Assembly (NCBI GenBank): GCA_963840455.1
Contig: CAWIYV010000006.1
Location: 1 to 22,627, forward strand
Source of the DNA: Nitrospirota bacterium
GTDB lineage: Bacteria > Nitrospirota > UBA9217
DNA: 22,627 nt
Direction: 5' to 3'
Part shown: positions 3,406 to 20,508 of the stretch, piece after piece
Position numbering within the stretch: the first letter of the stretch is position 1
Layout: the number at the start of each line of letters is the position of its first letter
Position numbers and translations under genes: made by a program
Notes under the pieces: generated by a model
Told to the model about the DNA's origin: nothing
Databases searched by the model: none
The model's input: only the letters and a program-made list of their open reading frames with translations

Positions 3406-3471
3406 ATTTTATCCCTCCCTGTGTCCCCGGACGAGCCGGGAAGTTAGACCACATAAATCTGTATTACGCAT

Positions 3472-3664: not shown

Positions 3665-3770
3665 TCACGGTTTCTTCTCTTTTTTCGGCCTGTCGTTGTT
3701 CTCGTCCTTCTTCTTCTCCTGCTTTTTGTCCTTCTCCCCCCCCTGCTCGTCTGCCTTGCGCTCCTTCTCT
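3665..3770 (-). pseudogene. Orphan fragment homologous to the 3' end of the Lon-like gene
   Basis: Translates KADEQGGEKDKKQEKKKDENNDRPKKEKKP* versus KADEKGEKDKEEKKKEENNDVPKKEPERP* at 6310-6399. No in-frame start; upstream in-frame stop at 3800-3802. Confidence 0.75.
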
Positions 3771-3897
3771 ATTTCACCGCGCTGCCGTAGCCGCCGTCGT
3801 CAGCGATCATCCCTTCATGCAGCGTACAAACACTTTCCCGGCGACCGGTCCGATCCCCTCTCATTTGCTCATACACGTGCTCGATCACCGCGTCCCG

Positions 3898-4884: not shown

Positions 4885-4986
4885 GGTATCTCTCCTTTAC
4901 TGCACATGCAGATCTTTCTTGACTACAGGAACTTCCCCTTGTCTGAGCCGAACGATAGCAACCGCAGGCTTTTGATCCCTGGTTGT

Positions 4987-5030
4987 AAAAGAGAAAGGCC
5001 GATCATTCACAAAGGTCCCATCCCTTCGGC
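4987..5030 (-). terminator. Putative riboswitch expression-platform terminator
   Basis: GCCGA (aptamer 3' end, 5030-5026) can pair with TCGGC (5002-4998), followed by CTTTCTCTTTT. Confidence 0.5.
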
Positions 5031-5104
5031 AGTCCGGCCATCTTGATCGTTTAAGATCCGCAGCTTTCCGTCCCTGCTTCACAGCGGGCTCGGCTTTTCG
5101 GTTA
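5024..5104 (-). promoter_or_regulatory. Cyclic di-GMP-I (GEMM-I) riboswitch
   Basis: Minus strand reads CCGAAAAGCCGAGCCCGCT-GTGA-AGCAGGGACGGAAAGCTGCGGATCTTAA...AAGATGGCCGGACTGCCGAAG: a GNRA-capped P2, the GGGACGGAAAGC junction, P3 and the 3' TGCCGA. It lies in the 5' UTR of the SGNH gene. Confidence 0.88.
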
Positions 5105-5125
5105 CAGCTTTCGTGGGATATTTGA

Positions 5126-5134
5126 AGTATAGCA
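5126..5134 (-). promoter_or_regulatory. Extended -10 promoter for the riboswitch/SGNH transcript
   Basis: TGCTATACT about 20 nt upstream of the aptamer. Confidence 0.55.
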
Positions 5135-5317
5135 CTACAGCAGATTCGAGGATGGGATATTTTAAGGGTATGCAGAATGTTTCCTGATTTTGTGTATGGG
5201 AATGCGTAAAACATTGAGTTCCGCAGAACTACAGGAACTAACGTCCAGAGACGATGTCCTGAACCGCGTAGCTGCGTATCGCTGCCGCCATATTCTCATC
5301 GCCGAACAACGATCGCT

Positions 5318-6157
5318 CTAGAACCGGACTGCCGCCCCGAACACGGTCTCCTTCGTGCTCATGCTCAGATCACCACTGCTGAAAAGCTGATCGACCTCCA
5401 GGTTCATGTTCATGCTGCGCACCTCCGCGAAAAGGTCCAGAAGGGAGAATCGCAGCGACACGCCGAGAAGCCCGCCTACGCCGCTGCCCATCAGATCCGC
5501 CTCGAACGCATTCGTCGTGACACTGCCCGACGGCACAAAGGACAGGGCGATCCCCGCATAGATGTTCACATGTCCATTCGGCAGGGATTCGGTCCGGAAG
5601 AAGCGGAGCCGTACCATTGGCATCAGAGACAATGCAATATAGTCCACGCTCGCAGGGACGGCTCCCGGTCCGCCCGAAACGCCGTCAGCTTGTACAGTGC
5701 TGAACTCCATGGCGATTCCGAGATAGGGATACTTGTCCGCGCCCCACATGCCCCACCGTAATCCCATGACACTGGCGCTATTGAATCGGATATTCGCGGT
5801 TGTTGTCGTCGACCCACTGAACAGGAAGCCGGTCGAGGTGTACGTGGCCGTCGTATTGCCCGCCGATGAGGGTCCTCCGAAGAAGGCGAGATACTGCTCC
5901 AGCGTCTTGTGCCGACCCGTATGCCCTTTGTCATCGGTTGTCGGTGGAACCAATGCGGGGACGCTGCTGTCCCGGGCGGACGTTCCGCCTGATTCTCCTG
6001 GCCATAATTCCGCCGGCTGACTCGACGTCCCAGCGTCTTCCCGTTTCTCCTCCGCCAGGGCACTACCGGAGATTGAACCCGAGTGGATTCCAGGCAAGAA
6101 CAAGAACAGAAGGACAAAAGTGGACCAGCCAAATGTGCGCATCTCATTGTCACGCAT
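5318..6157 (-). CDS. Putative outer-membrane beta-barrel protein
   Basis: N-terminal signal peptide (..SALA-EE), a low-complexity linker, alternating hydrophobic strands and C-terminal ETVFGAAVRF (terminal Phe). Start is ATG 6157 or 6142. Confidence 0.72.
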   Translation of the reverse strand: MRDNEMRTFGWSTFVLLFLFLPGIHSGSISGSALAEEKREDAGTSSQPAELWPGESGGTSARDSSVPALVPPTTDDKGHTGRHKTLEQYLAFFGGPSSAGNTTATYTSTGFLFSGSTTTTANIRFNSASVMGLRWGMWGADKYPYLGIAMEFSTVQADGVSGGPGAVPASVDYIALSLMPMVRLRFFRTESLPNGHVNIYAGIALSFVPSGSVTTNAFEADLMGSGVGGLLGVSLRFSLLDLFAEVRSMNMNLEVDQLFSSGDLSMSTKETVFGAAVRF

Positions 6158-6309
6158 GAACGACAGGATCGAACTCCTTCCGCTCACAAAGGACAGGGCG
6201 GCAGTTCGTACGCACATTCACGTCGTGCTCCCTGCGCGCGTATCACGTTGCAGCAATCGCCTTTGTACGACGACCTCACTTGCTGCTGGATATGCTTCCT
6301 CCTGCTCCG

Positions 6310-8766
6310 CTACGGTCTTTCCGGCTCTTTCTTCGGCACGTCGTTGTTCTCTTCCTTCTTCTTCTCCTCCTTGTCCTTCTCGCCCTTTTCGTCGGCCTTG
6401 AGCTTCTTCGCCATCTCTTTCAGCCGCTTGTCCACGAGGAAGTTGAAGGTGCCTTCCGGGAAGGACCCGTCCGCCCGCCGTTCGCCCGCCGGCATGCCCG
6501 CGAGGATGGTGACAGCTTCGTCAACGGTGGTGATTGCATAGATCTGGAACTTGCCGTCCTTGACCGCCCGGACAACCTCCTTCTTGAGCATCAGGTTCTT
6601 CACATTGCTCTTCGGGATGACCACGCCCTGGCTCCCCGTGAGGCCCTTGGCCTTGCAGACCGCGAAGAATCCCTCGACCTTCTCGTTCACGCCGCCGATG
6701 GGCTGGACCTCGCCCTTCTGGTTGAAGGAGCCCGTGATGGCCAGGTCCTGCCGGACCGGCACTCCGGCAACGGCCGACAGGAGCGCCATCAGCTCGGCCG
6801 TGGACGCGCTGTCCCCCTCGATGTCGCTGTAGCTCTGCTCGAAGGCGAGGCTCGCCGAGAGCGACAGGGCCTTGTCCTGAGCGTACGTGCCGCCCAGGTA
6901 GTGCGAGAGGATGAGCACCCCCTTGTTGTAGATGCGGCCCGAGAGCTTGGCCTCACGCTCGATGTCCACCACGCCTGCCTTGCCGATATAGACACGGGAG
7001 GTGATCCGCGACGGCTTGCCGAAGGAGAAATCGCCGAGGTCGTAGACCGACAGGCCGTTCACCTGGCCCGTGACCGCGCCCGTGGTGTCCACCATGATGG
7101 TGCCGTCGGTCAGGAGCTCCTGGATCCGCTCCTCCAGCAAATTCGCCCGGTAGACCTTCTCGTCCAGCGCTTTGTCCACGTGCCCCGTTTCCACAGTGCG
7201 CTTTTCCTCGCGCCCGGCCCAGAAGGACGCCTCGCGCACCAGGTCGGAAAGATCGCTGAAGCGGAGCGACAGCTTGCCCTTCTTCTCGGCTAGCCGGGCC
7301 GCATAATCGATGACCTCCGCCACCGCCTCGCGGCTGAAGGGCAGCAGTTTCTCCTCCGCGGCCATGGCACCGATGAAGTTGGCGTACCGCGCCTTCTCCT
7401 CGCGGGACACGTCCATCTGGGTGTCGAAGTCCGACTTCACCTTGAAGATGCTCCGGAACTCCTCGTCGTAGTAATACAACAGGTAATAGAGCCAAGGGCT
7501 GCCGAGCATGATTATCTTCAGAGAGATCGGGATGGGCTCGGGCTTGATCCCCGCGGTGGCGATCCCGTAGAGCTCGCCAATGTCCTCGATCTTGACCTCG
7601 TTCTTCTTGATGATTCGCTTGAGCGCGTCCCAGGCAAAGGGGCTCCGAAGCACGTCCATGGCGTTCATGATGAGGTAGCCGCCGTTCGCCTGGAGCACGG
7701 ACCCGGACTTGATCATCATGAAGTTGGTGAAGGCCACCCCGAGCCGCATCTTGCGCTCAATGCGGCCGACGAGGTTGTTGTAGGTGGGATTTGCCTCCTC
7801 TACCACCGGGCCGCCCTTCGTCTTCGAATTGTCCACCAGGACGTTCACCCGGTACCGTTCCAGGAAGCTCGCCCGGTCCATGCCTTCGATGTGGAACGGG
7901 AGCTCCGGCGTCTGTCCGAGAAACTCCTTGAGGTTCCCCAGGATGTCCTCCTCAACCTCGACGAGGTAGTCGGGGATGCGGGGGTTCGCGCGGTACTTCT
8001 CCTTCAGGTCATCAAGCTGGTGACCCATGGCGAAGTGGGCGACCTTGCGGTTCAGTTCGTGGATTCTCTCGCGCGCCTCCTTGTCGAGCTGGCGTGCCTT
8101 GGACAGAAAATCGCGGATCTCGGTGTCCACCTTCTTTTCCCGGTCGTCCATCTCGAGCCGCTGCTCCGCGGAGAGATTCTCCACGTCCTCGGCCTGGAGC
8201 GGCTTGCCCTTGAAGAGCGGGACCTTCACGATCCCCGTGCGGGTCACCGAGAGCTGAAAGCCCATTTCCTTCGTCTTGCGGCCCGTGTCCTCGAAGAGGA
8301 CCTCCTTGGCGCGCTCAAGCTCCTCCTGGATGCCGGTCTTCTGCTCCTCGTACTCCTTGGACTCGAAGACCTTGGGGATCTCGCTCAACATGAGCTCGAT
8401 GAACTTCTCCATGTCCTGCTGGAGCTCGCGTCCGCTGCCCGGCGCAAGCTTGACCGCGAGGGGCCGGTCCGGGTCCTTGAAATTGTTGATGTAGCACCAA
8501 TCCTCGGGCACGGGACGGTCGAGCGAGATGCGCTTCACAATGGACTTGACGATCGTGTTCCTGCCGGTGCCCGGGACGCCGGACACGAATATGTTATAGC
8601 CGTGGTTCCGGATAGAGAGGCCGAACTCGATGGCAGAGACGGCCCGAGCCTGGCCGATCACCTCTTCGCGGGGCTTGAGCTCCTCCGTCGTGGCAAACGG
8701 GAACTCTGCCGGGTCGCAGGCATGCCGAAGCTCTGCAAGGGGAACGACGAAATCCTTGATATCCAC
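6310..8766 (-). CDS. Lon family (S16) protease, LonC-like
   Basis: VIGQARA, GVPGTGRN, a coiled-coil insertion, EANPTYNNLVGRIE, and Ser-Lys dyad motifs IEGDSAS and PIGGVNEK. GTG start with AAGGAGG RBS. Confidence 0.95.
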   Translation of the reverse strand: MDIKDFVVPLAELRHACDPAEFPFATTEELKPREEVIGQARAVSAIEFGLSIRNHGYNIFVSGVPGTGRNTIVKSIVKRISLDRPVPEDWCYINNFKDPDRPLAVKLAPGSGRELQQDMEKFIELMLSEIPKVFESKEYEEQKTGIQEELERAKEVLFEDTGRKTKEMGFQLSVTRTGIVKVPLFKGKPLQAEDVENLSAEQRLEMDDREKKVDTEIRDFLSKARQLDKEARERIHELNRKVAHFAMGHQLDDLKEKYRANPRIPDYLVEVEEDILGNLKEFLGQTPELPFHIEGMDRASFLERYRVNVLVDNSKTKGGPVVEEANPTYNNLVGRIERKMRLGVAFTNFMMIKSGSVLQANGGYLIMNAMDVLRSPFAWDALKRIIKKNEVKIEDIGELYGIATAGIKPEPIPISLKIIMLGSPWLYYLLYYYDEEFRSIFKVKSDFDTQMDVSREEKARYANFIGAMAAEEKLLPFSREAVAEVIDYAARLAEKKGKLSLRFSDLSDLVREASFWAGREEKRTVETGHVDKALDEKVYRANLLEERIQELLTDGTIMVDTTGAVTGQVNGLSVYDLGDFSFGKPSRITSRVYIGKAGVVDIEREAKLSGRIYNKGVLILSHYLGGTYAQDKALSLSASLAFEQSYSDIEGDSASTAELMALLSAVAGVPVRQDLAITGSFNQKGEVQPIGGVNEKVEGFFAVCKAKGLTGSQGVVIPKSNVKNLMLKKEVVRAVKDGKFQIYAITTVDEAVTILAGMPAGERRADGSFPEGTFNFLVDKRLKEMAKKLKADEKGEKDKEEKKKEENNDVPKKEPERP

Positions 8767-8799
8767 GCTGTGCCTCCTTGGTTACCGTTGCCTGATTAG

Positions 8800-8828
8800 A
8801 TTGTAGGGACAGATGAAGGTTCTGTCAA
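8800..8828 (-). promoter_or_regulatory. Sigma70 promoter of the Lon-like gene
   Basis: TTGACA-17 nt-TACAAT. Confidence 0.8.
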
Positions 8829-9515
8829 GGCAGGCGTCACACCGTTCATGACCGAAAAGGAGCAAATCCCTTTTGCTGGGACCGTCAGCCGCCCTTTTTA
8901 GGCAAGAGTGCATGGGAAAAGCGAACCATGTAAGACTCCTCCTCAGAGGCCCCTGCATCCCGTGAACAGGGTCGCGCACAAGCATGCCCGGAACAAAGCT
9001 GATAAACCACCGGTCATGCCTGCGCGTGCGCAGCGAAAGCGCACATGAATCGCCATCGTTGCAGGTTAAAGCAGAAGACGCCTGGCATGCCTGCGCGGAC
9101 CTATGAACCGGGGTGCAGAAAGAAATAAAATCTTTTTTTTGGGCAGCCCGGTGCAACGCTGTGCTAAGCATGCCGAACATTGAGTGGTGTTCCAGGTCAG
9201 TCCGGCGAATCCGGCAGCGCTTCCCCTGCGGACGCGCTGCTTTCCGGTCGGTGGTCGTTCCCTGCCTGGCGGGGCATGCATAACGCACAGTCGTCGCAGC
9301 CGGGCAGCCCTAGGTATTGGTAAAAGCTTCAGACCAATTCAAATATGAACCCACTCGATGGGGAGATGAACCATTTCGAAGATCATGCCTGCTCTTCATC
9401 ATAACAGAGGCAAGGGACGCTCTCCGCAGCATGTTACCGATGACAAACAGCCATTCCCGGAACCAATTGACGAAAAGTGACCGCTCTGCAACAGACCGCA
9501 ACCGCTAAAATTGTG

Positions 9516-9544
9516 TTGATTTCTTGGAGAGCGGACCCTATAAT
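9516..9544 (+). promoter_or_regulatory. Sigma70 promoter of the large regulator
   Basis: TTGATT-17 nt-TATAAT. Confidence 0.75.
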
Positions 9545-9594
9545 CGCCGCCATAGGTTTTTCCGGCGCGCTCACCCATCAGAGAGGAGCACGGC

Positions 9595-12500
9595 ATGAAC
9601 CGTTCGAAGTTCCTGGCCCCCCAACCGACCAATGTCCTGGCGCGGGAACGTCTCATCAACAGGCTCGGCGCGTGGGATGACAAGAAGCTGGTGATCATTC
9701 ATGCGCAGGCGGGCCAGGGTAAGAGCACGCTTGCCGCCGGGTTCGCAGCGTCGCTCCCCCTACCGACCGTCTGGTATACCATGGATGCCGGAGATGATGA
9801 TCCCGCGGTGTTCCTCTCCTGCCTCGCGCAGGCCCTTCAGTCCGCCCTGCCCGAGCACTTCCCGAAGTTCCTACCGCCTCCCCGCATCCGCTATGGCGCT
9901 CGCGGATCGGAACAGGCCGTCACCCGCTGGATCGGGCAGATGTTCGGAGGCATGAACAGCTCCTGCCTCATCGTGTTCGATGATTACCACTTGACTGCTG
10001 CTTCATCGGCGCTCCGTTCCATCCTCAAGACACTCTTCGAAGGAACGCCTGCAGCTGCTCGTTTCATGCTTCTTTCCCGTACCCGGCCGGAACTTGATAT
10101 CGCAAAGCTACGCTCGCGGCGAAGCGTTGCCGAGCTGCGGGGAAGCGATCTCAAGTTCAGCGATCAGGAAGCACAGGAACTCTTCGGCGGGGTCTTCGGG
10201 ATGCCCCTCGCGGAGGCCGAAGCAGCCGCGGTCAATCGCACCGCAGAAGGATGGCCGGCCGGGCTGGTTCTGCTGCACGGTTTCCTCATGAACGTTCCCC
10301 GTCAGGACCGCCTCGCGGCCCTTGCCGGACGCCAGCAGCTGGAATTTCGCACGCACATCTTCGACTACCTTGCCCAGGAGGTCTTCTCGCATCTCCCGCA
10401 GGACCTGCAGGACTTCCTGCTGCATACGGCGGTGGCCGATCACCTCACCAGGCCATTGATGTCGGCCCTGACCGGCCTCCCGGAGACCGCCCCCGACGGC
10501 AAGCCCTCGGTCTCCACGCTGGTCCGGGAACTTTCCGCCCGGAACCTTTTCGTCTCTTCCGTTGACGCCGATGGTTCGGTCATCCGCTTTCACGCCCTCT
10601 TCCGCGAGTTCCTGCTGAGGACGTTCCAGGCGAAGCGCTCCTCCCGGGAGGTCAACAAGCAATTTGCGGCCGCTGCACGCTGGTTCAAGACCGCGGGAGA
10701 CCCGGTGCGGGCGATCGATCTCTGGATCGGATCGGGCCAGGAGCAAAAGGCTCTCCGCGAGATCGAGTCCTGCGCACAGCACCTTATCGCAGTCGGACGG
10801 ACCCAGACGCTCCTCCGGTGGATGCATGCCCTCCCGAAGGCCGCTGCGCGCAGGCCCTGGTTCGAGTTCATCCAAGCCGTTGCCTGCCGTTATACCGAGC
10901 CGGCGGCGGCGCTGATGCTCTATGAGCGGGCATACCGGGGATTCCATCGGGGCCGGTGCGTTCCCGGGCAGATGCTCGCGCTCAGCGGCATCATCGAATC
11001 CTGTTTCCACATTGGGGGCGATTTCGCGCGGATGGGCCGCACGGCTGCACTGGCACAGGCGCTCCTCGCACGGAGCCGGAGGGAAAAGCGCGAAACAAGG
11101 GCCCGGCTGCTCCTCGCCATAGGCACGGCATGGTTCTTCATCGGCAGGCTCGAGCAGGGCGCCGGCGCGCTCCGGCAGGCTCTTGAGCTCTTCCGGAAGC
11201 AGGGGAACCACTTCTATCAGATCACCAGCGCCATCTACCTCATACCCTGCGCGCTCTACCAGGGCGATTTTCCGCTGGCACGGGAGGCCGTGAACAGGGG
11301 ATTCGAGGCGTCGGACGCAATCCCCGAAGAGACCGCCGGCCGGGCGGGGCTTTTCCTGACCAGGGCCATGGCGGCTTTGTTCGAGGGAAATTTTGCCGAA
11401 GCGCAGGACTGCATCGACCAGTGCAGGAGCCTTGCGGACACCCATGCGCTCGAATCGATCGGGTTCCTTTCCCTCGATATCGGGGGATGGCTCAAGATCG
11501 CGCAGGGCGATTACCGCGGCGCGGAACGCCTTCTTGCGGAGTGCAAACGCAGGGGACAAGAGGCCCGGAACGCCTTCTTCAGCGCCTCGGCGTCCCATCT
11601 GCTCGCGATCGCCTTCCTGTTCCAGGGAAGGCTTGACCGGGCAAAAAAGGAGTCGGACGCCGCTTTGGCGCTCCAGCAACGTTCGGGGAGCAGGCTGTTC
11701 CACGCGATCTACCTCATCGCGAGCGGAGCAATTTCACTGAAGCTGGGCAGGGTCCGCCGGGCGGAGAGGGAACTGCAGAGCGCCCTCAGGATCCTCAGCC
11801 AGGTCCAGGCCGCGCAGCAGGAAGCGAACGCCCATCTCCTGCTCGCGTCCCTGAACCTCGCACGCAACAACGAGTCAGCGGCCCGGAAGCACCTGGCAGC
11901 CGGATTCGGCATCGGCGAGGAACGGGGCTTCACCTATTACGCTCTGCTGACGCATGACGAGCTTTCATCCCTCGCAGCGGAGGCGGCCGGCCGTGACATC
12001 GAGCCAGACTACTGCCGCCGCCTCATCGCAGGGCCCTCGCTGCCGCAGGCGCGTCCGCTCATCAGGATATTCTGCCTCGGCGAGTTCCGGGTCCTGCGGA
12101 ACGGCCTCCCGATCAGCGACGGGGAGTGGAAAAGCAAGCTGGCAAAAACGCTGGTCAAGCTCATGGCCGTCCGCGGCGGTCAGAAGCTTACTCGCGATGA
12201 AGCAGCTGAAACGCTCTGGCCCGATGCCGATGCCTCCCGGAAGCCGCTGCTGATGAACAGCCTTCTTCACCGGACCAGGAGCGTCCTTGAGCCGGACGGA
12301 TCTCCGTCCCGGAGCGATTCCTGCATCATCCAGGACAGCGGCCTGCTCTCTCTGAACCCGTGTAGGGTCTGGACGGATGTCCAGGAATTTGCCGCGCTCC
12401 ATGCAACCGCCCGGCAGAAGCGGATTTCCCGTGAGCATGACCCCGGAAAGACCTTGGCGCTCTACGACCAGGCGTTCAGCCTGTACCAGGGAGATATCCT

Positions 12501-12825
12501 GCCCGGAGACCTGTACCATGACTGGGCGCAGGGGCACCGGGAGCATCTCAAGAAGATCCATGCCGAAATGCTCATGCATGCCGCTATCCTGACCGAGGCA
12601 CAGAATGACACGAACCGGTCGTTCACGTATTATGAGCGGATGTTCTCGCATGACCCCTGCAATGAGAAGGCGTGCCGCTGGCTCATGGCGTGGCATCTTG
12701 CTGCCGGGCAGCGGAGCGATGCGGTCAGGATCTATGAACGGTGTCAGCTGGCGCTCAGAAAAGAGCTGGACATCGAACCCGATGACCAGACGAGGAGGGT
12801 GTACCGGAGCATCATCGGAGGATGA
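9595..12825 (+). CDS. Large ATP-dependent transcriptional regulator: MalT-like STAND ATPase + TPR + C-terminal winged-HTH/BTAD (SARP-type)
   Basis: Walker A AQAGQGKST, Walker B LIVFDDYH, TAEGWPAGL, IFDYLAQEV, IRFHALFREFL, TPR-like helices, IRIFCLGEFRV, LYQGDILPG, DPCNEKACRWLM; GAGGAG RBS. Confidence 0.92.
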   Translation: MNRSKFLAPQPTNVLARERLINRLGAWDDKKLVIIHAQAGQGKSTLAAGFAASLPLPTVWYTMDAGDDDPAVFLSCLAQALQSALPEHFPKFLPPPRIRYGARGSEQAVTRWIGQMFGGMNSSCLIVFDDYHLTAASSALRSILKTLFEGTPAAARFMLLSRTRPELDIAKLRSRRSVAELRGSDLKFSDQEAQELFGGVFGMPLAEAEAAAVNRTAEGWPAGLVLLHGFLMNVPRQDRLAALAGRQQLEFRTHIFDYLAQEVFSHLPQDLQDFLLHTAVADHLTRPLMSALTGLPETAPDGKPSVSTLVRELSARNLFVSSVDADGSVIRFHALFREFLLRTFQAKRSSREVNKQFAAAARWFKTAGDPVRAIDLWIGSGQEQKALREIESCAQHLIAVGRTQTLLRWMHALPKAAARRPWFEFIQAVACRYTEPAAALMLYERAYRGFHRGRCVPGQMLALSGIIESCFHIGGDFARMGRTAALAQALLARSRREKRETRARLLLAIGTAWFFIGRLEQGAGALRQALELFRKQGNHFYQITSAIYLIPCALYQGDFPLAREAVNRGFEASDAIPEETAGRAGLFLTRAMAALFEGNFAEAQDCIDQCRSLADTHALESIGFLSLDIGGWLKIAQGDYRGAERLLAECKRRGQEARNAFFSASASHLLAIAFLFQGRLDRAKKESDAALALQQRSGSRLFHAIYLIASGAISLKLGRVRRAERELQSALRILSQVQAAQQEANAHLLLASLNLARNNESAARKHLAAGFGIGEERGFTYYALLTHDELSSLAAEAAGRDIEPDYCRRLIAGPSLPQARPLIRIFCLGEFRVLRNGLPISDGEWKSKLAKTLVKLMAVRGGQKLTRDEAAETLWPDADASRKPLLMNSLLHRTRSVLEPDGSPSRSDSCIIQDSGLLSLNPCRVWTDVQEFAALHATARQKRISREHDPGKTLALYDQAFSLYQGDILPGDLYHDWAQGHREHLKKIHAEMLMHAAILTEAQNDTNRSFTYYERMFSHDPCNEKACRWLMAWHLAAGQRSDAVRIYERCQLALRKELDIEPDDQTRRVYRSIIGG

Positions 12826-12834
12826 GGTGATGGC

Positions 12835-13063
12835 GACGCGGAGGCACGGGGAACGTATTAAAGAAAAAAAATAGTCAACGACTCTTGGACACGAATTGAA
12901 GCTCCCTGCAGAAAGCTGGAAAATGCGCTCGCTCCTGGATTCAACGGAATATCAGCCACAAACAACTGCGGCGTAATGCCGTAATTTGACCCTCTTACCT
13001 TCCTGCCTTCCTACCTCCATTCCCTCAATCATTTCCTCTTTTCCTCTGCGTCCTCTGCGGTGA
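12835..13063. repeat. Intergenic repeat cluster (inverted GACGCRGAGG units and 8-nt tandem units)
   Basis: GACGCGGAGG (12835-12844) is inverted to CCTCTGCGTCCTCTGCGGTGA (13043-13063); 8-mers CCCTCTTA CCTTCCTG CCTTCCTA CCTCCATT CCCTCAAT lie between them. Confidence 0.6.
12896..12943. mobile_element. Internally deleted copy of the twin-hairpin element at 1323-1439
   Basis: TTGAAGCTCCCTGCAG...AAGCTG...AATGCGCTCGCTCCTGGATTCA; both ends are identical to the full copy. Confidence 0.75.
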
Positions 13064-13070
13064 AGAGAAG

Positions 13071-13583
13071 CTAGCCCTTCCCCTCCTCGATCGCAAGCGC
13101 CACCGCGCCGGTGGACGGATCGGGAACGCTCCATCGCAATGCCCAACGTGCGACAGGTGTCTGGACCGGCTCGGCGGTGCCGGAGACGCGATAGCTGGCC
13201 CAGGCCGAGAGCTCGAACAGCCAGTTCAAGACCGCGCGATATCCGAACATATGTACCTTGCTGGCGGTCCCGGGATGGCCAGGAAGAAGAAGGTCATACA
13301 CGTCCCAGCTGGCGGATCCGCCGGCTGGGATCGATGATGCAGCCGGGCGAGTAAAGGCGTGGGTGACATCATGGACCGTCCCACCCTCCTGACCAAGAGA
13401 GGCATGAGGCACGAGGTCGATGACTTCTGCAGAGCAGACATTGTTTATCGTCAGGATCGCCCTGCTGAAGGGGATATCCCTGCCGTCGCTGGCCCGAATT
13501 TTTGAGGCAACGGACTGCAAGGAAATCACGAGACAGAGGCCCCTGCCTCCAGGTACCGTGCTTTCGTCAGGGGATTTCAGCAT
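13071..13583 (-). CDS. Hypothetical protein (170 aa)
   Basis: Strong RBS AAGGAGGT and its own promoter; fills the gap between genes; no motif recognised. Confidence 0.75.
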   Translation of the reverse strand: MLKSPDESTVPGGRGLCLVISLQSVASKIRASDGRDIPFSRAILTINNVCSAEVIDLVPHASLGQEGGTVHDVTHAFTRPAASSIPAGGSASWDVYDLLLPGHPGTASKVHMFGYRAVLNWLFELSAWASYRVSGTAEPVQTPVARWALRWSVPDPSTGAVALAIEEGKG

Positions 13584-13619
13584 GACGCTTACCTCCTTCT
13601 CGACATCGAAACTATCCTG

Positions 13620-13647
13620 ATTATAGCATGCCGTGCACCTGAGCCAA
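13620..13647 (-). promoter_or_regulatory. Extended -10 promoter of the 170-aa ORF
   Basis: TGCTATAAT (13628-13620), with TTGGCT 16 nt upstream of the hexamer. Confidence 0.6.
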
Positions 13648-13686
13648 CAGGGACCAGAGGTCCGCGGTCAAGCCTTCGCCTACGCC

Positions 13687-14976
13687 TCACTGGAGGCAGT
13701 GGAACAATCCGGTACACCAGAGGCAGGCGCCGCAGGGGACGCGCTCGATATAGCAATCCTGTTCAAAGTCCGCTTCCGCCACATAGTCGCAGAGAGCGAA
13801 ACCACAGTCAAAGCAGAAGGGGAACTTGTATCCGAGCACGCGCTCCCGGAACGAACGGGAGTCCGTGCTATTCCAAATAGCAAGGATGTCCCGGTCGCGC
13901 AGGCTGCCGAGGACCCACGGCTTGACTCGCTTCTCGATGCCGCCGACATAGCAAGCGTAGCGGTGCCAGAGGAAGTAGCAGGGATGGACGTCGCCGTCCC
14001 ACGAGACGAATGAACCACCCCCTTCCACGAACTCGCACTTCCTCGTGTTCCGCGGCGCCATGCCGGGCAGCGTCAGTTCGACCCCCTGTTCCCGGGCGGC
14101 CTTGCGTGCCTCGACGAACACCCTTTCCGCCGACGCCAGCCACTCATCATCCCGCCTGAGCAACCGTTCCATGTGCAGGGTGATGCCCTGTGCTTCCGCA
14201 TCTCTCCGCATCTTTTCGACGATACCGACGATCTGCTCTTCCTCCGGGGCCATACCTACCTTCGTGATGGTATCGAGATACCGGCGGATGTCCAGGCCTT
14301 CCTGCAGGGCCTTTGCTCTCCAGCGTTCGTAGATGGCAATGGCGGCCGTGGTATTGGTATCGTAAGCGGCCTGTGCTACAAGGTCTTTCTGGTAGGGAAG
14401 CAGCTGGGTGACAATGGCGAAGCTTGCACCCGCCCTGCCTGCCCAGCGGACCGCTTCGGGAAGGTCTGCGAAGTTGCTGCGCATCAGCACGAACTCGATC
14501 CCGATCTTCAGATCGCGCCCTCTGCGCTCTTCCTTGGCCTTGTTCAGGCTCGCGAAAGCTGCGGCGATGCCCTGCAGTTCTCCGCCACTCCGGATCGCGC
14601 GGAAACTTTCGTCCGATATTGTATCGAGAGAGAGGCAGATGCGATCGAGCCCTGCTTCAACGAGCGATCGCGCCCGCTGATCGGTCAGCAGCATGCCGTT
14701 CGACTGAAATCCCACGACTGCATGCTCCGGCAGGATGGACCGCGCCCGGCTGATGAACGCCTCCAGTTGCGGATGGAGCAAAGACTCTCCGATGCCGTTA
14801 AGAATGAGGGCATCAAGATGCGGAAAGGCCGGCGTCAGGGCTTCGAAGATCGCCGACGACATGCTGCCTTCAGGGATCCCGCCAATGCCGTTCTGTTTCA
14901 CACACATATCGCATTGGAGGTTGCACCTGGTCGTCAGCTCGACGAATAGCTTGGATGGATGTTCTTTTGGAGCCAT
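13687..14976 (-). CDS. Radical SAM/SPASM putative metalloenzyme maturase (AOR-associated type)
   Basis: CNLQCDMC radical SAM motif, LNGIGESLLHP, SPASM CEF...SWDGDVHPCY, and a Cys-rich tail CFDCGFALCDY...DCY...PCGACLWCTGLFHC. Confidence 0.9.
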   Translation of the reverse strand: MAPKEHPSKLFVELTTRCNLQCDMCVKQNGIGGIPEGSMSSAIFEALTPAFPHLDALILNGIGESLLHPQLEAFISRARSILPEHAVVGFQSNGMLLTDQRARSLVEAGLDRICLSLDTISDESFRAIRSGGELQGIAAAFASLNKAKEERRGRDLKIGIEFVLMRSNFADLPEAVRWAGRAGASFAIVTQLLPYQKDLVAQAAYDTNTTAAIAIYERWRAKALQEGLDIRRYLDTITKVGMAPEEEQIVGIVEKMRRDAEAQGITLHMERLLRRDDEWLASAERVFVEARKAAREQGVELTLPGMAPRNTRKCEFVEGGGSFVSWDGDVHPCYFLWHRYACYVGGIEKRVKPWVLGSLRDRDILAIWNSTDSRSFRERVLGYKFPFCFDCGFALCDYVAEADFEQDCYIERVPCGACLWCTGLFHCLQ

Positions 14977-14982
14977 GGAACC

Positions 14983-14988
14983 ATTCTA
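14983..14988 (-). promoter_or_regulatory. -10 box, leaderless candidate for the radical SAM gene
   Basis: TAGAAT then 6 nt to ATG; no well-spaced SD sequence. Confidence 0.5.
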
Positions 14989-15082
14989 TCCGTCCTGCCG
15001 CAAAGGGATATGATGCCGGTCATATGCCGGCTTCTGCAGGCGAGGTGGCAGTGGAAATGCATTTCGGCAAAACGGGGAAGTC

Positions 15083-15091
15083 TGGTATAAT
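15083..15091 (+). promoter_or_regulatory. Extended -10 box, leaderless candidate for moaD
   Basis: TGGTATAAT then 6 nt to ATG 15098. Confidence 0.65.
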
Positions 15092-15097
15092 TTCCCT

Positions 15098-15322
15098 ATG
15101 AAAGTGAAGCTCAAGCTTTTTGCCTCATTGCGGCAGTTCGGCCCTGATGAACAGGTAATCGATCTTCCCGAACACACGACGATCGACGATGTTGTGCGTT
15201 CCCTTCACTTTCCCGGAACGATCAGGCTCCTCAGGATCGTCAACGGAGAGCACCGACCTGCGGACCACCTTCTGAAGGACGGCGACGAGCTCGCCCTCTT
15301 CCCCCCCATCGCCGGCGGTTAG
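15098..15322 (+). CDS. moaD: MoaD/ThiS family sulfur carrier protein
   Basis: MKVKLKLFASLR...IVNGE...LKDGDELALFPPIAGG with C-terminal Gly-Gly. Confidence 0.92.
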   Translation: MKVKLKLFASLRQFGPDEQVIDLPEHTTIDDVVRSLHFPGTIRLLRIVNGEHRPADHLLKDGDELALFPPIAGG

Positions 15323-15339
15323 CTTCCCCGGCGTCAGCC

Positions 15340-15966
15340 TTATCCCTGTCCGGAAGATACCGTAAGCATTACCCAGCCTGCTCCTGCCAATCCCGTGTCA
15401 TTCTGCAAGCGTCCGACCTCGATAGTTTTGCCGTCGAGCGTAACGGTGCATCCCTGCTGGAGTTCCTGTGCCCGATCAGCAAGGTAACCGAGAAGGTCTA
15501 CGGCCTCGACGAGAACGCCCTTCCGCAAGAGGCCGGAGCCAAGCTCGGCCATCAGGAGATTGAAGATCTTTATACTCACCCACCCTTCTACGGGCGCGCA
15601 TGCCATTCCCGTTTCGTGGTAGGTGATCGCGCCGCGGAAGGAGGAATAGGCCCCTCCCCGCCTGAGTGTTGCGCCGACCAGTCCGGGCATGGCGGCCGAG
15701 AGCGCGAGGACCGAGCCGTCGTGTATCAACGCCGCACTGATGTCATCGACCGGTTTGCCGTCGAGCATGATGGACTGGATCTTCTCGATCGTCGCAGGGC
15801 TCGCGCCGATCTCTTCCCGCAGGAATGCATCGACGCTGCAGCCGACGCGGCGCCTGATCTTCACCCCCTGCTGGAGCAGCAGGAAGAACCGCGCGACGAG
15901 CGGCAGGTCCACGACGAACACGAGGCGGGGGTACGGTCCGGCTTCAGCTTTCTGCGTATCGACCAT
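15340..15966 (-). CDS. AOR-associated hypothetical protein, probable tandem ubiquitin-like (beta-grasp) domains
   Basis: IMLDGKPVDD...IHDGSVLALSAAMPG resembles the MoaD C-terminal half; the sequence has an internal repeat. ATG 15966 with GAGGTG RBS (alternative GTG 15975). Confidence 0.75.
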   Translation of the reverse strand: MVDTQKAEAGPYPRLVFVVDLPLVARFFLLLQQGVKIRRRVGCSVDAFLREEIGASPATIEKIQSIMLDGKPVDDISAALIHDGSVLALSAAMPGLVGATLRRGGAYSSFRGAITYHETGMACAPVEGWVSIKIFNLLMAELGSGLLRKGVLVEAVDLLGYLADRAQELQQGCTVTLDGKTIEVGRLQNDTGLAGAGWVMLTVSSGQG

Positions 15967-16011
15967 GTTTGCCACACCTCATTGCACCTGTTATGGACAG
16001 GAGCTGCGAAT

Positions 16012-16074
16012 GGACGCGGACCAATGCTGACCTGGAATTGTGGTCTTATCCGTATTCTGCCGTTATCCGCGTCC
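16012..16074. repeat. Inverted repeat GGACGCGGA / TCCGCGTCC
   Basis: Arms at 16012-16020 and 16066-16074; related to the GACGCGG units at 12835 and 18373. Confidence 0.45.
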
Positions 16075-16143
16075 CACTTGCCTGCTCACGTTCATCGATG
16101 CGGCGCCACAGCAACGCGCCCGAATGCATCCCGAAGGACAATA

Positions 16144-16175
16144 AAAAAAGGAGAGACCTGCGCCTCTCCTTTTTT
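16144..16175 (-). terminator. Intrinsic (bidirectional-type) terminator after aor
   Basis: AAAAAAGGAGAG-8 nt loop-CTCTCCTTTTTT. Confidence 0.85.
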
Positions 16176-16192
16176 GAATCGTATCGTCCGGA

Positions 16193-17929
16193 TTACCAGT
16201 TGAAGACCTTGTCCAGGTCCTCGTCCTTCACTGCGAAGGTGACGTTGTGCGGAGCGAACTTCTCGGTCTTGAAGTAGCTCGGCAGCCGGTCGTGCTGCGG
16301 CGTGAAGCCCGCCGCCTTGTTGAAGTCCCGCTCCATCTTCAGGACCTTCTTCCCCAGGTCGGTCACACCGTCGCCCGTCATGTTGATACCGTAAAAAGCG
16401 CTGATCATATCGAGCAGGGCCTGAAAGGTTTCGGGCTGGTCGAGCACCGCAAAAGCGATGAAGAGGCACATGCCGGTGGAATCGATCGCGGCGGTCGCGA
16501 TCTGGAGGTTCCGGGAGAGCTCCACCTGCCCTTCGGGCTTGAGCGCGTTCACGTCGCCGCCAACCTTCAACACGTTCGCGGTGACCGCGTATCCTGCCGT
16601 GTGGTCCGCGCCCATGGGGCTCGTCGCGTAGGTGACGCCGATGCCCTGCACTGCGCGGGGGTCATAGGCCGGCATCGCCTGGTTCTTGACCACCGGCACC
16701 CGCTCGACACCGAAGGCCTTGCCGGTCATGCCGGCTCCATTGCCGAGGATCCTGCCGAGGTCCGTACCCTTGCCGACCTCGTTAATGAATTTTATCGCCG
16801 CGTCGGCGTCGCCGAACTTGGCGAGGCCGGCTTCCATCGCAACAGCGATCGTCGCGCCCATCTCGATCGTATCGATGCCGTAATTGTCATCGAGGAAATC
16901 CATCATGGCGATCTTGTCCAGGTCGTTGATGCCGCAGTTCCCGCCGTGGGCCCAGACCGTCTCGTATTCGGGCTGCTTGGTGAGGAAATGGCCGTCCTTG
17001 TCATTATAGGTGCCCGAGCACTGGATCACGCAGCCGCTATGGCAGCCGTGGGTTGCCAGCCCCTTGCGCTTTGTCTCGGTCTCGGCCATGGTCTCGCCGC
17101 TGATTTTGGCTGCGCCGTCGAACCGTCCCTGCTTGAAGTTATAGGTGGGATAGCCGCCCACCTCGTTCAGGATGTTGGTGAGCACGTTCGTGCCGTAGGC
17201 CGGGAGGCCCTGGCCCGTGACAGGATGCTTCTTCAGGCCGTCGACGAACCGTTTGTTCGCGTCCTGGAACTTTGCAAGGTCCTTGGGTTCCCGTATCTTC
17301 ATGCCGGCGGCATCGAGGACGATTACCTTGATGTTCTTGGATCCCATGACCGCACCCACGCCGCCGCGGCCAGCGTGTCGCGTGGGCCGCTGTTCCATGT
17401 CGGTGAATGCGATGGTCGCGGCGCCCATCTTCATCTCGCCGGCAGGTCCGATCGATATGCATGAGACCTTGTCTCCGTATTCCTTCTTCATCTTCTCGAC
17501 AAGGTCGTAATTGGGGAGCATCTTGAGGCTGTTATCCTTCGTGATCTTGACGCCGTCCTTGTTGATGAACACCTTGTAGAGATCATCGCCCGTCGGTTTC
17601 CCTTCGAGCACGATCGCGCCATAGCCGAGCTTCGCCAGGACCTGGGACGGCTGCCCTCCGGAGTTCGATTCCTTGATACCGCCGGTAAGCGGGCTCTTGC
17701 AGCCCACGGAGATCCGGCCCGACTGGGCGCCTGCGGTCCCGCTCAAGAGCCCCGGAGCGATCACCAGCTTATTTTCCGCCCCGAGCGGATGACAGAGCGG
17801 CGGGACCTCCTTCGAAACGATCGCCGACGTCAGCGCCCTCCCCCCGAACCCTGCATAGTCGCCCATCGGCGTGGTCTTCGCCTTGGGTCCGCCTTCTGCT
17901 CCTACATCGATCCTTAGAATCTTATCCAT
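16193..17929 (-). CDS. aor: Tungsten-dependent aldehyde:ferredoxin oxidoreductase family protein
   Basis: KSPLTGGIKESNSGG, AGRGGVGAVMGSKNIK, GCHSGCVIQC plus DSTGMC (Fe-S ligands), PEYET, DNYGID, PAYDPR; AGGAGG RBS. Confidence 0.96.
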   Translation of the reverse strand: MDKILRIDVGAEGGPKAKTTPMGDYAGFGGRALTSAIVSKEVPPLCHPLGAENKLVIAPGLLSGTAGAQSGRISVGCKSPLTGGIKESNSGGQPSQVLAKLGYGAIVLEGKPTGDDLYKVFINKDGVKITKDNSLKMLPNYDLVEKMKKEYGDKVSCISIGPAGEMKMGAATIAFTDMEQRPTRHAGRGGVGAVMGSKNIKVIVLDAAGMKIREPKDLAKFQDANKRFVDGLKKHPVTGQGLPAYGTNVLTNILNEVGGYPTYNFKQGRFDGAAKISGETMAETETKRKGLATHGCHSGCVIQCSGTYNDKDGHFLTKQPEYETVWAHGGNCGINDLDKIAMMDFLDDNYGIDTIEMGATIAVAMEAGLAKFGDADAAIKFINEVGKGTDLGRILGNGAGMTGKAFGVERVPVVKNQAMPAYDPRAVQGIGVTYATSPMGADHTAGYAVTANVLKVGGDVNALKPEGQVELSRNLQIATAAIDSTGMCLFIAFAVLDQPETFQALLDMISAFYGINMTGDGVTDLGKKVLKMERDFNKAAGFTPQHDRLPSYFKTEKFAPHNVTFAVKDEDLDKVFNW

Positions 17930-18095
17930 GGTTTCCTCCTGATCGCTCCGAGGTTCTTCCAGAACAACCCCCTCGATTGTTTATGAATTTATGTGCGACA
18001 ATGCTGATAGGGCAGCATCTCATGGTAAGTGCCCCGCGACAGCCTGTGAGAGAATGGATGAGTGTGGATCGGAAACAGCAGACCGTGATGTAAAA

Positions 18096-18124
18096 AGCAT
18101 ACCCCCGCAGAGCATGTTCGTCAA
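18096..18124 (-). promoter_or_regulatory. Sigma70 promoter of aor
   Basis: TTGACG-17 nt-TATGCT, implying a 5' UTR of about 160 nt. Confidence 0.7.
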
Positions 18125-18260
18125 GACGCTTTAATATAATTTCCACGTATTATCAACAGGATAACCACAATTGCTGTTCCTGCGTTGTTCCTTTTGGGCT
18201 ATTGCGCTTCTATCGCCTCTTGCGTTCGTTCAAATACTGTCGAGGGGAGTTTATGCGGGA

Positions 18261-18363
18261 CGGTCATGACCGACGAACGATGTCAGCTAGCGCTGAAAAA
18301 GGCACTGGACACCGATCCGGACGGGCAGACAAGGAAATTGTACCAGGGGTTATCGGAGGGTGA
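18261..18363 (+). pseudogene. Orphan fragment homologous to the 3' end of the BTAD regulator
   Basis: ERCQLALKKALDTDPDGQTRKLYQG versus ERCQLALRKELDIEPDDQTRRVYRS (12736-12810). Ends ATCGGAGGGTGA versus ATCGGAGGATGA, with a 1-nt deletion just before. Confidence 0.85.
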
Positions 18364-18372
18364 AGTGAAATA

Positions 18373-18537
18373 GACGCGGGGAATACGGCAGAACATCCAG
18401 AAGTATTTTGACGCAGACGAACGCGGAAAAGACCAGATTACGAAAACTGCAGTTACCATGCCGTGATCTCACCTTCCTGCCTTCTTACCCTCTTAACCTC
18501 ACACTTATCTCCTCGGCCTCCGCGTCCTCTGCGGTGA
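18373..18537. repeat. Intergenic repeat cluster homologous to 12835-13063
   Basis: GACGCGG, AACTGC..ATGCCGT, ACCTTCCTGCCTTC and CCTCCGCGTCCTCTGCGGTGA occur in the same order as downstream of the regulator. Confidence 0.65.
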
Positions 18538-18544
18538 GAAAGCG

Positions 18545-19741
18545 TTATGGTTTGTTTTTCCGAATCAGAAAATACACCTTCCCTTCCTGCTGCATGTACC
18601 CCGCGGCGATCTGAGCGTCGCTCCCTTGCCCCCAGAACAGGTCCACCCTGCCCGGCCCCTTGATGGCGCCGCCTGTGTCCTGGTTCAGCACGAACCGGGA
18701 GAAGTGTTTCCACTCCTTGATCACCCCGTTCTCGATGACCGGCTTCTGTGTTTCGATGATCGCAAGGGCACCCTTCGGCAGGAGCTTGTTGTCCGTGGCA
18801 ATGGAACGGCCAGGCGTAAGCGGCACGCCGATATTTCCGAGCGACGGCCCCATGTCCATTCGGAAGAAGACGTAGCTCGGGTTCTGGTTCAGGAGCGGCA
18901 CGATCTCGTCAGGGTGCTGCCGGAGGTACTCGCGGATCGCGGGCATGGACATGTTCTCCTTCGCGATGGCGCCTTTGTCGATGAGCTGCTTGCCGAGGCT
19001 CTTGTACTGTCTGCCGTTCTGGCCGTCGTACAGAATGCTCACGATGTTCCCGTTGCCGAGGTCCGCCTTGCCCGAACCCTGGATCTGAAGGAAGTAGATG
19101 TCCACGTGATCGTTGCACCACAGCATCTCGAGGTTCCTGTTCGCAAGCGCCTGCTTCTGGTCGATCTCCTCGCGGGAGTAATAGGGCAGGACCTTCCGGC
19201 CCTCGATCCTGGCGCTGAGCTTGTTCCGCGGGAAGTCGTTGCCGAAGAGCGTGAGGTCGATCTCGATGATGTCGTTCGGCCGTTTGTAGAGCGGGTACTT
19301 GTACACGTCGTCGGCATTGACCCGGCAGGAGAGCATCGGCTCGTAGTAACCCGTGACCAGCACCTTCCCCCATCCGTCCGAGCCCACGGACTGGTAGAAA
19401 TCGAACTCCTTCTTAATCTGCTTGGTCTTTTGTTCGTCAGAGAGCGATGCATTCTCGACGATCAACAGGAAGTTCTGGAGCGTCACAACCATGTCGAGCG
19501 CCGTGACCTTCGCTGGCCCGAACGAGAACGCGGTCTCTGGCGGGAGCTTCTTGTAATATTCCAGGCTCTGGCGCGCAGCAGCAGCGATATCTTTGAAGGC
19601 CAGATCATCCTGCGGCGACACAGACCTCCACCACGACAGCGGCTCCAAGGCCATCTCCGGCCTCGTCACCGGCGGCCTCGCGCAGGCTACGAGGGAGAGG
19701 ATGGCCAGCGATATAAAAATTAACTTCTTTAAATTAATCAT
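18545..19741 (-). CDS. mltA: Membrane-bound lytic murein transglycosylase A (lipoprotein)
   Basis: Lipobox LVAC, VTGYYEP, FLQIQGSG, NPSYVFF, 3D domain QDTGGAIKGPGRVDLFWG. Confidence 0.95.
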   Translation of the reverse strand: MINLKKLIFISLAILSLVACARPPVTRPEMALEPLSWWRSVSPQDDLAFKDIAAAARQSLEYYKKLPPETAFSFGPAKVTALDMVVTLQNFLLIVENASLSDEQKTKQIKKEFDFYQSVGSDGWGKVLVTGYYEPMLSCRVNADDVYKYPLYKRPNDIIEIDLTLFGNDFPRNKLSARIEGRKVLPYYSREEIDQKQALANRNLEMLWCNDHVDIYFLQIQGSGKADLGNGNIVSILYDGQNGRQYKSLGKQLIDKGAIAKENMSMPAIREYLRQHPDEIVPLLNQNPSYVFFRMDMGPSLGNIGVPLTPGRSIATDNKLLPKGALAIIETQKPVIENGVIKEWKHFSRFVLNQDTGGAIKGPGRVDLFWGQGSDAQIAAGYMQQEGKVYFLIRKNKP

Positions 19742-19980
19742 TCTGTGAACTACACCTACAGGCTTGTACTATCACTTGATATATAGGAAGCGCAGAATAC
19801 GGGTTGAAAATTGCCAGTAACGCTCCACAACAAGAACCCACAAAATCTATAAGGTCTAACGCTCAACCTGATACGATAAACGGGGGCAGGTCACGTAGTG
19901 AAGATCGAAGAAGTGAAATGATCTCCCTCCTGCGGCAGCCGCAGGGTCCGCCCATCCATCCCGCAGTGATACACCTCGTG

Positions 19981-20508
19981 TTATTGACCGCCTCCCGAGG
20001 ACGAACGGTTCAGCATCCGCTCCACATTAGGAAACAATTTAATATAGACGGTGATCTTGCCGTCCTTCAGCGCATAGCTCACGTTCAGGGGGTCCATCCC
20101 GCCCACGTTGGTGGCCGGATAGCGGGGAAGGATCTCGAACCCGAGCGTTCCGCCGCTGCCGTCCGGGATCCGGTGAACGCGGATCGCCTCCACCGTGCGG
20201 ACGCCACATCGGACGTGTGTATTCGCCTCGGCGAGGGCCTGGTCGGCGGGAAGGCCTCGCTTAACCTTGTAGGACGTGGCCGGAACATAGAACTCCACCA
20301 TGCCCGCCTTGTCAGGCGCTATCAGGAAGGCGGCGTGCTCGATGTCATCGGGGTACCTGCATCCATAGGTGAAAAGATCGTAGGTCCCTTCAATGCCTTT
20401 CGGATCAGCGGTCTCGCTCCGTAATTGCGTGCCAAGGCTGCACCCCTGAATGGTGAATATTACGATCAGCGCTGCAGCAACGTCAAGGATTTGTCTCTTC
20501 GCCTTCAT
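19981..20508 (-). CDS. Hypothetical lipoprotein
   Basis: ATG 20508 with GGAGG RBS; basic N-region, hydrophobic core and lipobox-like IQGC. Confidence 0.8.
   Translation of the reverse strand: MKAKRQILDVAAALIVIFTIQGCSLGTQLRSETADPKGIEGTYDLFTYGCRYPDDIEHAAFLIAPDKAGMVEFYVPATSYKVKRGLPADQALAEANTHVRCGVRTVEAIRVHRIPDGSGGTLGFEILPRYPATNVGGMDPLNVSYALKDGKITVYIKLFPNVERMLNRSSSGGGQ

Follow-up and report, generated by a model that had tools for sequence, protein, structure and literature searches.

Integrative elements such as e14 and phage 21 in icd, and islands in tRNA genes, target a gene at its 3' end and supply a new end in place of the old one. In Campbell-type integration, the single crossover of a circle gives rise to direct repeats on both sides of the insert, and its precise pop-out leaves a single hybrid copy. 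At the Rhs, contact-dependent inhibition (CDI) and type VI secretion system (T6SS) effector loci, displaced ("orphaned") 3' gene ends are attributed to homology-facilitated illegitimate recombination (HFIR) (Kirchberger et al. 2017, PMC5361080). Here we analyse a stretch of 22,627 nucleotides (hereafter the window), which is the whole of contig C6 in the 14-contig, 4.03-Mb genome (G000) of a Nitrospirota bacterium and where a five-gene module with an aldehyde:ferredoxin oxidoreductase (AOR) family enzyme lies between a regulator gene, termed REG, and the gene mltA, the 3' end of REG being present once on each side of the module, as copy A at REG itself and as copy B beside mltA. With a probability of about 70%, we consider this arrangement to be an old insertion scar, where the module was placed between REG and mltA in the ancestor of the genus, duplicating the tail of REG.

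The locus can be compared with the three systems as follows. The locus resembles the Rhs, CDI and T6SS scars in that an intact upstream gene acts as the homology anchor, the new DNA follows immediately on a complete end of this gene, the older end keeps its orientation but has been moved downstream, a recombinase is lacking, and alternative alleles are present in relatives. It differs from them in that its cargo serves metabolism and cofactor maturation and is not a toxin-immunity pair, a single relic is present rather than an array, the anchor end is conserved rather than polymorphic, and the spacer is duplicated as well. With the elements in icd and in tRNA genes it shares the 3'-end direct repeats that bracket the insert and the intact gene accompanied by its old end as a pseudo-fragment. 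By contrast with those site-specific elements, no integrase or excisionase, and no tyrosine or serine recombinase, is found among the module genes, and there is no exact or near-exact attachment (att) core, the repeats being 73-76% identical and very old. With Campbell-type integration it shares the direct repeats that flank the insert and the single hybrid copy that is found in one relative (G003), the difference being that no circle, plasmid or replication gene is seen and that a circle carrying the REG end would itself need a source.

The duplicated regulator end and the inserted module

In a pairwise blastn comparison of the module flanks, 12722-12841 aligns with 18261-18379 (73.3% identity over 120 nt, E 2e-19) and 12993-13063 aligns with 18467-18537 (76.1% over 71 nt, E 2.5e-12). 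The frame at 18185-18373, when translated, matches the REG C-terminus (58.6% over 29 aa, E 1.8e-7 against the 4.03-Mb genome), which is its sole significant match genome-wide, with the next match having E 0.27. Homology and a common orientation of the two stretches are thus confirmed at the coordinates that a preliminary description of the window had given. That description had put the shared coding end at the last ~33 codons of the regulator; when the search space is kept small, the relic can be followed through the last 43 residues of REG (~18233-18361), starting about 28 nt before 18261. Copy B is frameshifted by a 1-nt deletion near 18347. No second full copy of REG and no other close REG paralog is present in the genome itself. 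The longest identical run between the two copies, as read by eye from the alignment, is 16 nt and lies inside a generic repeat family.

It is noted that the similarity downstream of the coding part has to be read with care. Both copies end in ~21-28 nt (13039-13066 and 18510-18540) that make up one half-site of a palindromic repeat family dispersed through the genome. The family has the pattern TTTACCGCAGAG...CTCTGCGnCCTCTGCGGTGAAA, and for it there are 79 blastn-short matches in the genome and 30-42 overlapping blastn matches. The members of this family consist of CTCTGCGnC units with ends GGTGAAA and the inverse arm TTTACCGCAGAG; as judged by eye from the flanks, they often lie in spacers near apparent gene ends, and they may be repetitive extragenic palindromic (REP)-like or terminator elements. 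Both copies of the repeat stop 7 nt short of the stop codon of the convergent gene (13071 and 18545). That each copy ends at such a stop codon, which had been remarked before, is correct, but these ends are palindromic half-sites of a family with many members near apparent gene ends, and the feature is therefore generic, as is the occurrence of the half-site in A as well as in B. The second dispersed family has a member in spacer A (Table 1), with up to 260 overlapping blastn matches, and the absence of this member from copy B accounts for the large gap in the alignment of A and B. The family is ~117 nt long and has dozens of genomic copies at 85-97% identity; a related copy is found at 1323-1439 of the window, and the metagenome contig L042 has an extra copy in its spacer A. 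Hence the downstream repeats that had been described as shared are indeed similar, but they belong in part to genome-wide families and only part of them is specific to the two copies. Essentially private to A and B are the coding part and a CT-rich stretch of ~45 nt (12993-13038 and 18467-18510). The locus in this way shows generic intergenic repeats inflating the apparent homology.

The module consists of hyp170, a radical SAM maturase, a ThiS/MoaD-like carrier, hyp211 and the AOR gene. This order is kept in three other genomes (G016, G024 and G007) amid unrelated neighbours, which include an extracytoplasmic function (ECF) sigma/anti-sigma pair, macro-domain and GYD proteins, DsbA and a POT transporter, and no recombinase or mobility genes accompany the module in these three. 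Because the same five genes occur in unrelated contexts, the ~5.2 kb between the two copies is an inserted module, in agreement with the cassette of the preliminary description. The maturase is present in nine of the 41 genomes (E<=1e-40). Its nucleotide identity is 0.76-0.89, alike within the genus and between genera, while that of mltA falls to 0.61-0.78 between genera, varying by segment; the comparison points to the transfer of the module between genera. Moreover, between G000 and the metagenome contig L044 the REG genes are 92.7% and the dacS11 genes 95.1% identical, but the segment from hyp170 to hyp211 is only 78% identical. Since this divergence of 22% is to be set against 7% for REG and 5% for dacS11, the module interior has been replaced by recombination at least once. 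Scans of the open reading frames (ORFs) between REG and mltA against Pfam and NCBIfam gave no integrase, transposase or other recombinase, as had been noticed from the sequence before.

Ancestral order, age of the duplication and decay of the relic

Among 40 other genomes that were searched for REG, full-length orthologs of 50-93% identity are present in 12, and a split copy is present in G001; the synteny was taken from 13 fetched ortholog loci. In four of these loci REG is directly convergent with mltA, namely in G003, which is the closest relative and belongs to the same genus, and in G006, G019 and G011, which represent three other genera. The synteny comparison, which had been suggested together with the idea that REG and mltA were once neighbours, thus supports that idea, and the ancestral order is REG-mltA. 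In a further locus (G010) the distance from REG to mltA is 2.9 kb, in G004 the module lies between the two genes, and in G002 and G001 it adjoins REG; in the remaining five loci the DNA is too short or neither gene is present. On the other side, the AOR gene adjoins mltA in G002, G004 and G005, and also in G001 after the joining of its two overlapping contigs. The module therefore occupies the REG-mltA locus in five of the six genomes of the genus. Similarly, 11 of 13 metagenome contigs with a REG identity >=74% have module genes directly downstream of REG, the two exceptions being one contig that is too short and L047. In L047 (2614-3537; REG 89% identical), REG is followed neither by the module nor by mltA but by an unrelated convergent ORF of 181 aa, which represents a third state of the REG junction. 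Both uninterrupted sites (G003, G006, G019 and G011) and alternative cargo (the allele of L043/L044 and the neighbour in L047) are thus seen in relatives.

Relics of the REG end are found at the same place in other members of the genus. The relic of G002 covers 41 aa (E 1e-5) and begins, like that of G000, at about REG residue 1034. The relic of L043 and L044, which are near-identical loci and are counted as one lineage, covers 63 aa and contains stops. In G001, 14 nt are identical to the end of the REG gene of this genome, and a small inverted-repeat element interrupts the relic. This element is ~140 nt long with the terminal inverted repeats CAGGCTGTTGAAAAA...TTTTTCAACAGCCTG and lies inside the relic (L025 1-130 / L041), and the contig break of G001 falls within it, between the relic and mltA. 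No relic is visible in G004, where the spacer is 213 nt, or in G005. The relics follow a conserved upstream block of the AOR gene and abut it directly. Because relics are common to G001, G002 and L043/L044, the duplication is not recent, which agrees with the earlier view, and the relics decay independently across the lineages.

The relics of G000 and L044 share the derived changes CTA, GGG/AGG, CAG and GTT. The relics retain the ancestral K-L codons, whereas the functional copies of the G000 clade, for which G000, L042, L044, L045, L053 and G003 were compared, all have the derived V. In a tree of the 3' copies over 120 columns, the G000 and L044 relics pair at 95% ultrafast bootstrap (UFBoot), with long branches and near the root of the genus, and the pair lies outside the G000 clade, which is itself separated at 87% UFBoot; the relic of G001 is too short and was excluded, and the position of the G002 relic, which is poorly aligned and has a very long branch, was ignored. 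With the Nei-Gojobori method over 28 codons, the comparison of A with B gives dN (non-synonymous divergence) 0.166, dS (synonymous divergence) 1.07 and dN/dS 0.15, while the functional pairs within the genus give dN of 0.063 or less and dN/dS of 0.03-0.08. The overall ratio between A and B is low because the path between them includes the constrained functional branch. The private changes of copy B, polarised by eye against the orthologs, comprise the frameshift and, by count, ~8 non-synonymous and 5 synonymous substitutions. By this measure copy B is clearly relaxed relative to REG and, given the few sites, indistinguishable from neutrality.

These results bear on the origin that the preliminary description had proposed, where the module would have come from another lineage together with a foreign replacement of the REG 3' end, both copies having been selected gene ends before the event. 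Such an origin could draw on the low overall dN/dS at a dS of ~1.07, on the deep attachment of the relic pair near the root of the genus and on a number of non-synonymous changes in copy B that is below the estimate for full neutrality, and the same mechanism is known for the T6SS/Rhs loci (PMC5361080). On the other hand, the constrained branch of A would by itself give a low overall ratio, so that the synonymous-looking differences between the copies largely reflect this branch and a foreign, selected origin of B is not needed, and the data comprise 28 codons only. The private dN of copy B, 0.15-0.17, exceeds that of the functional copies, and the relics are frameshifted (G000) or carry stops (L044, orthologous to that of G000), so that we find no evidence for the claim that both copies were under selection as gene ends in different lineages. 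In addition, both copies are of the genus-specific QLALRKELD type, while the other genera, except G011, have the QRAL type. The functional copies of the genus group normally in the tree, with no foreign-looking copy A, and the relics are placed outside the G000 clade, near the root of the genus, and not inside a foreign lineage. We thus regard the foreign replacement end as unlikely.

Now we consider G003, which gives no AOR match at E<=1e-100 and no maturase match at E<=1e-40. When aligned with L044, the G003 sequence is of the copy-A type through the coding end and ~35 nt past the stop, and then of the copy-B type into mltA. The junction thus consists of the copy A coding end joined to the copy B spacer, with a sharp switch; in a three-way comparison with the own A and B of G000 the assignment is ambiguous in the spacer, and it is clear only with the closer L044. 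Two origins of this junction have to be weighed. If the empty site of G003 is primary, the module and the relic would have passed horizontally from one species of the genus to another, through homologous recombination in the flanking REG and mltA. This would be consistent with the demonstrated swap of the module interior (78% against 93-95% in the flanks), with the star-like maturase identities within and between genera, with the last 300 nt of mltA, where G003 matches G000 at 81% and other species match it no less well, and with the third state of the junction in L047. The alternative is that the module was lost secondarily. The functional REG end of G003 shares derived states with copy A of G000 and of L044, while the relics retain the ancestral ones. 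Moreover, the spacer B and mltA end of L044 are close to those of G003, with most aligned positions matching, and since the spacer B of L044 resembles that of G003, this spacer is native in a module-bearing sister lineage. The frequency of the module at the locus, in the genus and among the metagenome loci with REG >=74%, also speaks against a primary empty site. Because the derived V codon is common to G003 and copy A, and because all the other lineages sampled in the genus have the module, a secondary loss of the module in G003 is favoured, with its direction suggested by these sequence states, and a primary empty site seems to us improbable.

It might also be supposed that a complete second regulator paralog formerly stood beside the AOR genes and has decayed almost wholly, the relic being all that is left of it, the more so as the genomes of the family carry many distant REG-like paralogs (24-29% identity). 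However, the 5' limit of the relic is the same in G000 and G002 and abuts the conserved AOR upstream block, no further REG-like remains are found in five spacers searched at E<=1, and no second copy is present there in G001, G002, G004, G005 or L043/L044, nor any close one in the own genome. Two complete regulator paralogs on the two sides of the AOR genes, an arrangement that the preliminary description had named as telling against its view, were found in none of the genomes examined. We consider this supposition very improbable.

The assembly was checked against independent sequences. The metagenome contig L042 carries the left junction, L043 and L044 carry both junctions, and two further records (X8 record 31 and X5 record 16) span the right junction, reaching from upstream of the AOR gene through the relic to mltA. 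Because independent contigs carry both junctions, a chimera of two strains, which had been raised as a possible objection, is unlikely. Among the public runs, for which contigs only were used, none holds more than 0.51 of the words of the stretch. No joint from copy A to copy B is present among the 15 joints listed out of 27 (X1, X5, X6 and X8, on 9000-20500 at 88% likeness), a sample that is uninformative on absence. As a separate observation, positions 1-9847 of the window have a second copy, 98.5% identical, at the 3' end of contig C4 (219953-229808). C4 ends inside codon 84 of REG. The 162 differences between the two, which include 35 indel columns, are concentrated in 6000-9540 and break the frames of lonC and hyp168 in the C4 copy. 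Possible causes are a poor contig end whose overlap was left unmerged, variation between strains, or a tandem duplicate in decay. Even though this duplication shows that the assembly is not clean and part of the intergenic similarity comes from genome-wide repeats, it is hardly credible that the repeat bracketing the module is an artefact of a chimeric assembly or of chance similarity, since it falls in the part of the contig that is not duplicated, the same arrangement with both junctions is seen in independent metagenome contigs, and the coding relic is specific genome-wide and has orthologs in other species.

The proposed route of insertion

We return to the old insertion scar. In the proposed pathway, the five-gene module would enter between the convergent REG and mltA in the ancestor of the genus, and the insertion would duplicate the last 43-63 codons of REG together with the downstream spacer. 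Copy A would stay the working end of REG, now facing hyp170, while copy B, displaced beyond the module and lying beside mltA, would decay as non-coding DNA. The route would be a recombination that is anchored by homology to REG and proceeds without a site-specific recombinase, for which two options can be considered. The first one is the HFIR of a linear fragment. The other one is the Campbell-type single-crossover integration of a circle that carries homology to the REG end. The observed order, an intact anchor gene, then the cargo and then a truncated same-orientation copy of the anchor 3' end, is the layout of the HFIR type, and the scar would equally match the single-crossover integration of a circle. 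Afterwards the module would stay recombinationally active, having its interior swapped for a divergent allele in one lineage, and G003 would lose the whole module, keeping the copy A coding end and the copy B spacer.

Several points weigh against this pathway. No donor or intermediate is seen, so the recombination mechanism is argued by analogy. Both HFIR and the Campbell-type integration presuppose that in some earlier genome the module was next to a REG end, so that the first adjacency would still call for an explanation, and with at most 16 identical bases in a row the two copies make a poor RecA substrate. No flanking repeats are present around the module in five other loci (G016, G024, G007, G023 and G004). 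Concerning the decay, by a rough estimate copy B has ~9 non-synonymous changes where ~20 would be expected under full neutrality since the radiation of the genus, and this shortfall could come from a period of constraint, from gene conversion by copy A or from noise in 28 codons. Concerning the loss, the G003 genome is 93% complete with 8% contamination, its junction would look alike as a deletion product and as an uninterrupted ancestral site, and the case for the loss rests on the phylogenetic distribution together with one derived codon and a few others.

The insertion scar could also be given a more dynamic form, where the REG-mltA junction would be a recombinase-free exchange site at which the gene-end repeat lets the module pop out, re-enter and swap between species. 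We put this forward tentatively and think it rather doubtful; if it is true, the logic of the Rhs/T6SS orphan arrays would be applied to a tungsten-enzyme maturation operon.

Two further gene-end fragments in relatives are described here in their own right. In G003 (L013 6394-9893) and L044 (1-3126), an insert of ~3.1 kb with genes for an alpha/beta hydrolase and for a 437-aa protein of unknown family lies between lonC and REG, and a fragment of the lonC 5' end (residues ~1-18 and 85-134) is displaced beside REG; with this fragment the neighbourhood has another gene-end relic next to an insertion. In G021 (L023 2230-2487), a fragment of REG residues 1-86, with 55% identity and one stop, lies upstream of lonC, which separates it from the intact REG ortholog, and it ends near the codon where contig C4 of G000 ends. 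Gene-end relics may perhaps be a general habit of these genomes.

Features of the window and what the scar means

The features are collected in Table 1. The domain assignment of REG comes from its Pfam matches to BTAD (E 5.2e-21), TPR_MalT and AAA_22. For the AOR enzyme, both family domains are matched in Pfam (AFOR_N, E 1.3e-56; AFOR_C, E 7.8e-82), and from this family membership the enzyme would use tungsten, the choice of tungsten versus molybdenum and the substrate being unreadable from sequence. The candidate promoter of the AOR gene sits in the upstream block that is conserved in G001, G002, G005 and L044. Upstream of it, at 18130-18175, there is an inverted repeat TTATC-N5-GATAA, within a block conserved in G001 and L044, which may be an operator. 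The maturase scores above the curated cutoff of TIGR04311 (602.9 bits versus 400) and below that of TIGR04317, the tungsten cofactor maturase equivalog (243.9 bits versus 380). The ThiS/MoaD-like protein is 73-100% identical across the matching loci, and a promoter-like site precedes its gene at 15064-15091; an ORF at 14986-15177 on the minus strand was dismissed as the shadow of this gene on the other strand.

The other two module genes give no Pfam or NCBIfam match, and the protein atlas has only unnamed clusters for them. The first, hyp170, is conserved together with the module. Its structure model (pLDDT 78.6) predicts an Ig-like beta sandwich, with no family assigned, and has weak PDB matches to the Kir cytoplasmic domain and ApaG with TM below 0.5, from which no function was drawn. 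The other, hyp211, has 10 orthologs at 67-97% identity, and its structure model is unusable (pLDDT 34.6). A literature search, with supplements outside its scope, gave no published account of the AOR module locus.

Table 1. Features of the window around the duplicated regulator end (coordinates in nt of the window).
Feature	Position	Strand	Basis
Lon-like protease (lonC)	6310-8766	-	
REG regulator, 1076 aa: AAA ATPase, MalT-like TPR region, C-terminal BTAD	9595-12825	+	
Copy A coding part, working last 43 codons and stop of REG	12694-12825	+	
Spacer A, from REG stop to hyp170 stop	12826-13070	no strand	
Dispersed-repeat family member, copy A only	12892-12947	no strand	blastn
71-nt intergenic repeat of copy A, CT-rich part and palindromic half-site	12993-13063	+	
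hyp170, first module gene	13071-13583	-	
Radical SAM/SPASM putative metalloenzyme maturase	13687-14976	-	TIGR04311; Pfam Radical_SAM and SPASM
ThiS/MoaD-like small sulfur-carrier protein, C-terminal GG	15098-15322	+ (opposite strand)	PF02597, E 6.6e-14
hyp211, conserved module gene, family unassigned	15340-15975	-	
Terminator-like hairpin directly 3' of the AOR stop	16144-16175	-	14-pair stem, then T run
AOR family enzyme, 578 aa	16193-17929	-	
Sigma-70-like promoter candidate for AOR (TTGACG, 17 nt, TATGCT)	18096-18124	-	
Copy B coding part, decaying relic of the last ~43 codons of REG	18233-18363	+	
Spacer B, from relic to mltA stop; includes the 71-nt repeat (18467-18537) and palindromic half-site (~18510-18540)	18364-18544		
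mltA, membrane-bound lytic murein transglycosylase A	18545-19741	-	Pfam MltA, E 2.2e-56, and 3D domain

The scar belongs to a known class of rearrangement scars, and it represents no new kind of mobile element and no new mechanism. With it, the five genes are defined as a co-inherited, horizontally moving module, whose two unknown genes merit functional study. An operon-sized metabolic module that would have entered the chromosome without an integrase or transposase is here a well-documented natural example, for which four states are visible: the empty ancestral site, the scarred occupied site, the swapped interior and what we take as a clean loss. Finally, short gene-end pseudo-fragments of this type, once annotated, can be read as markers of insertion history.

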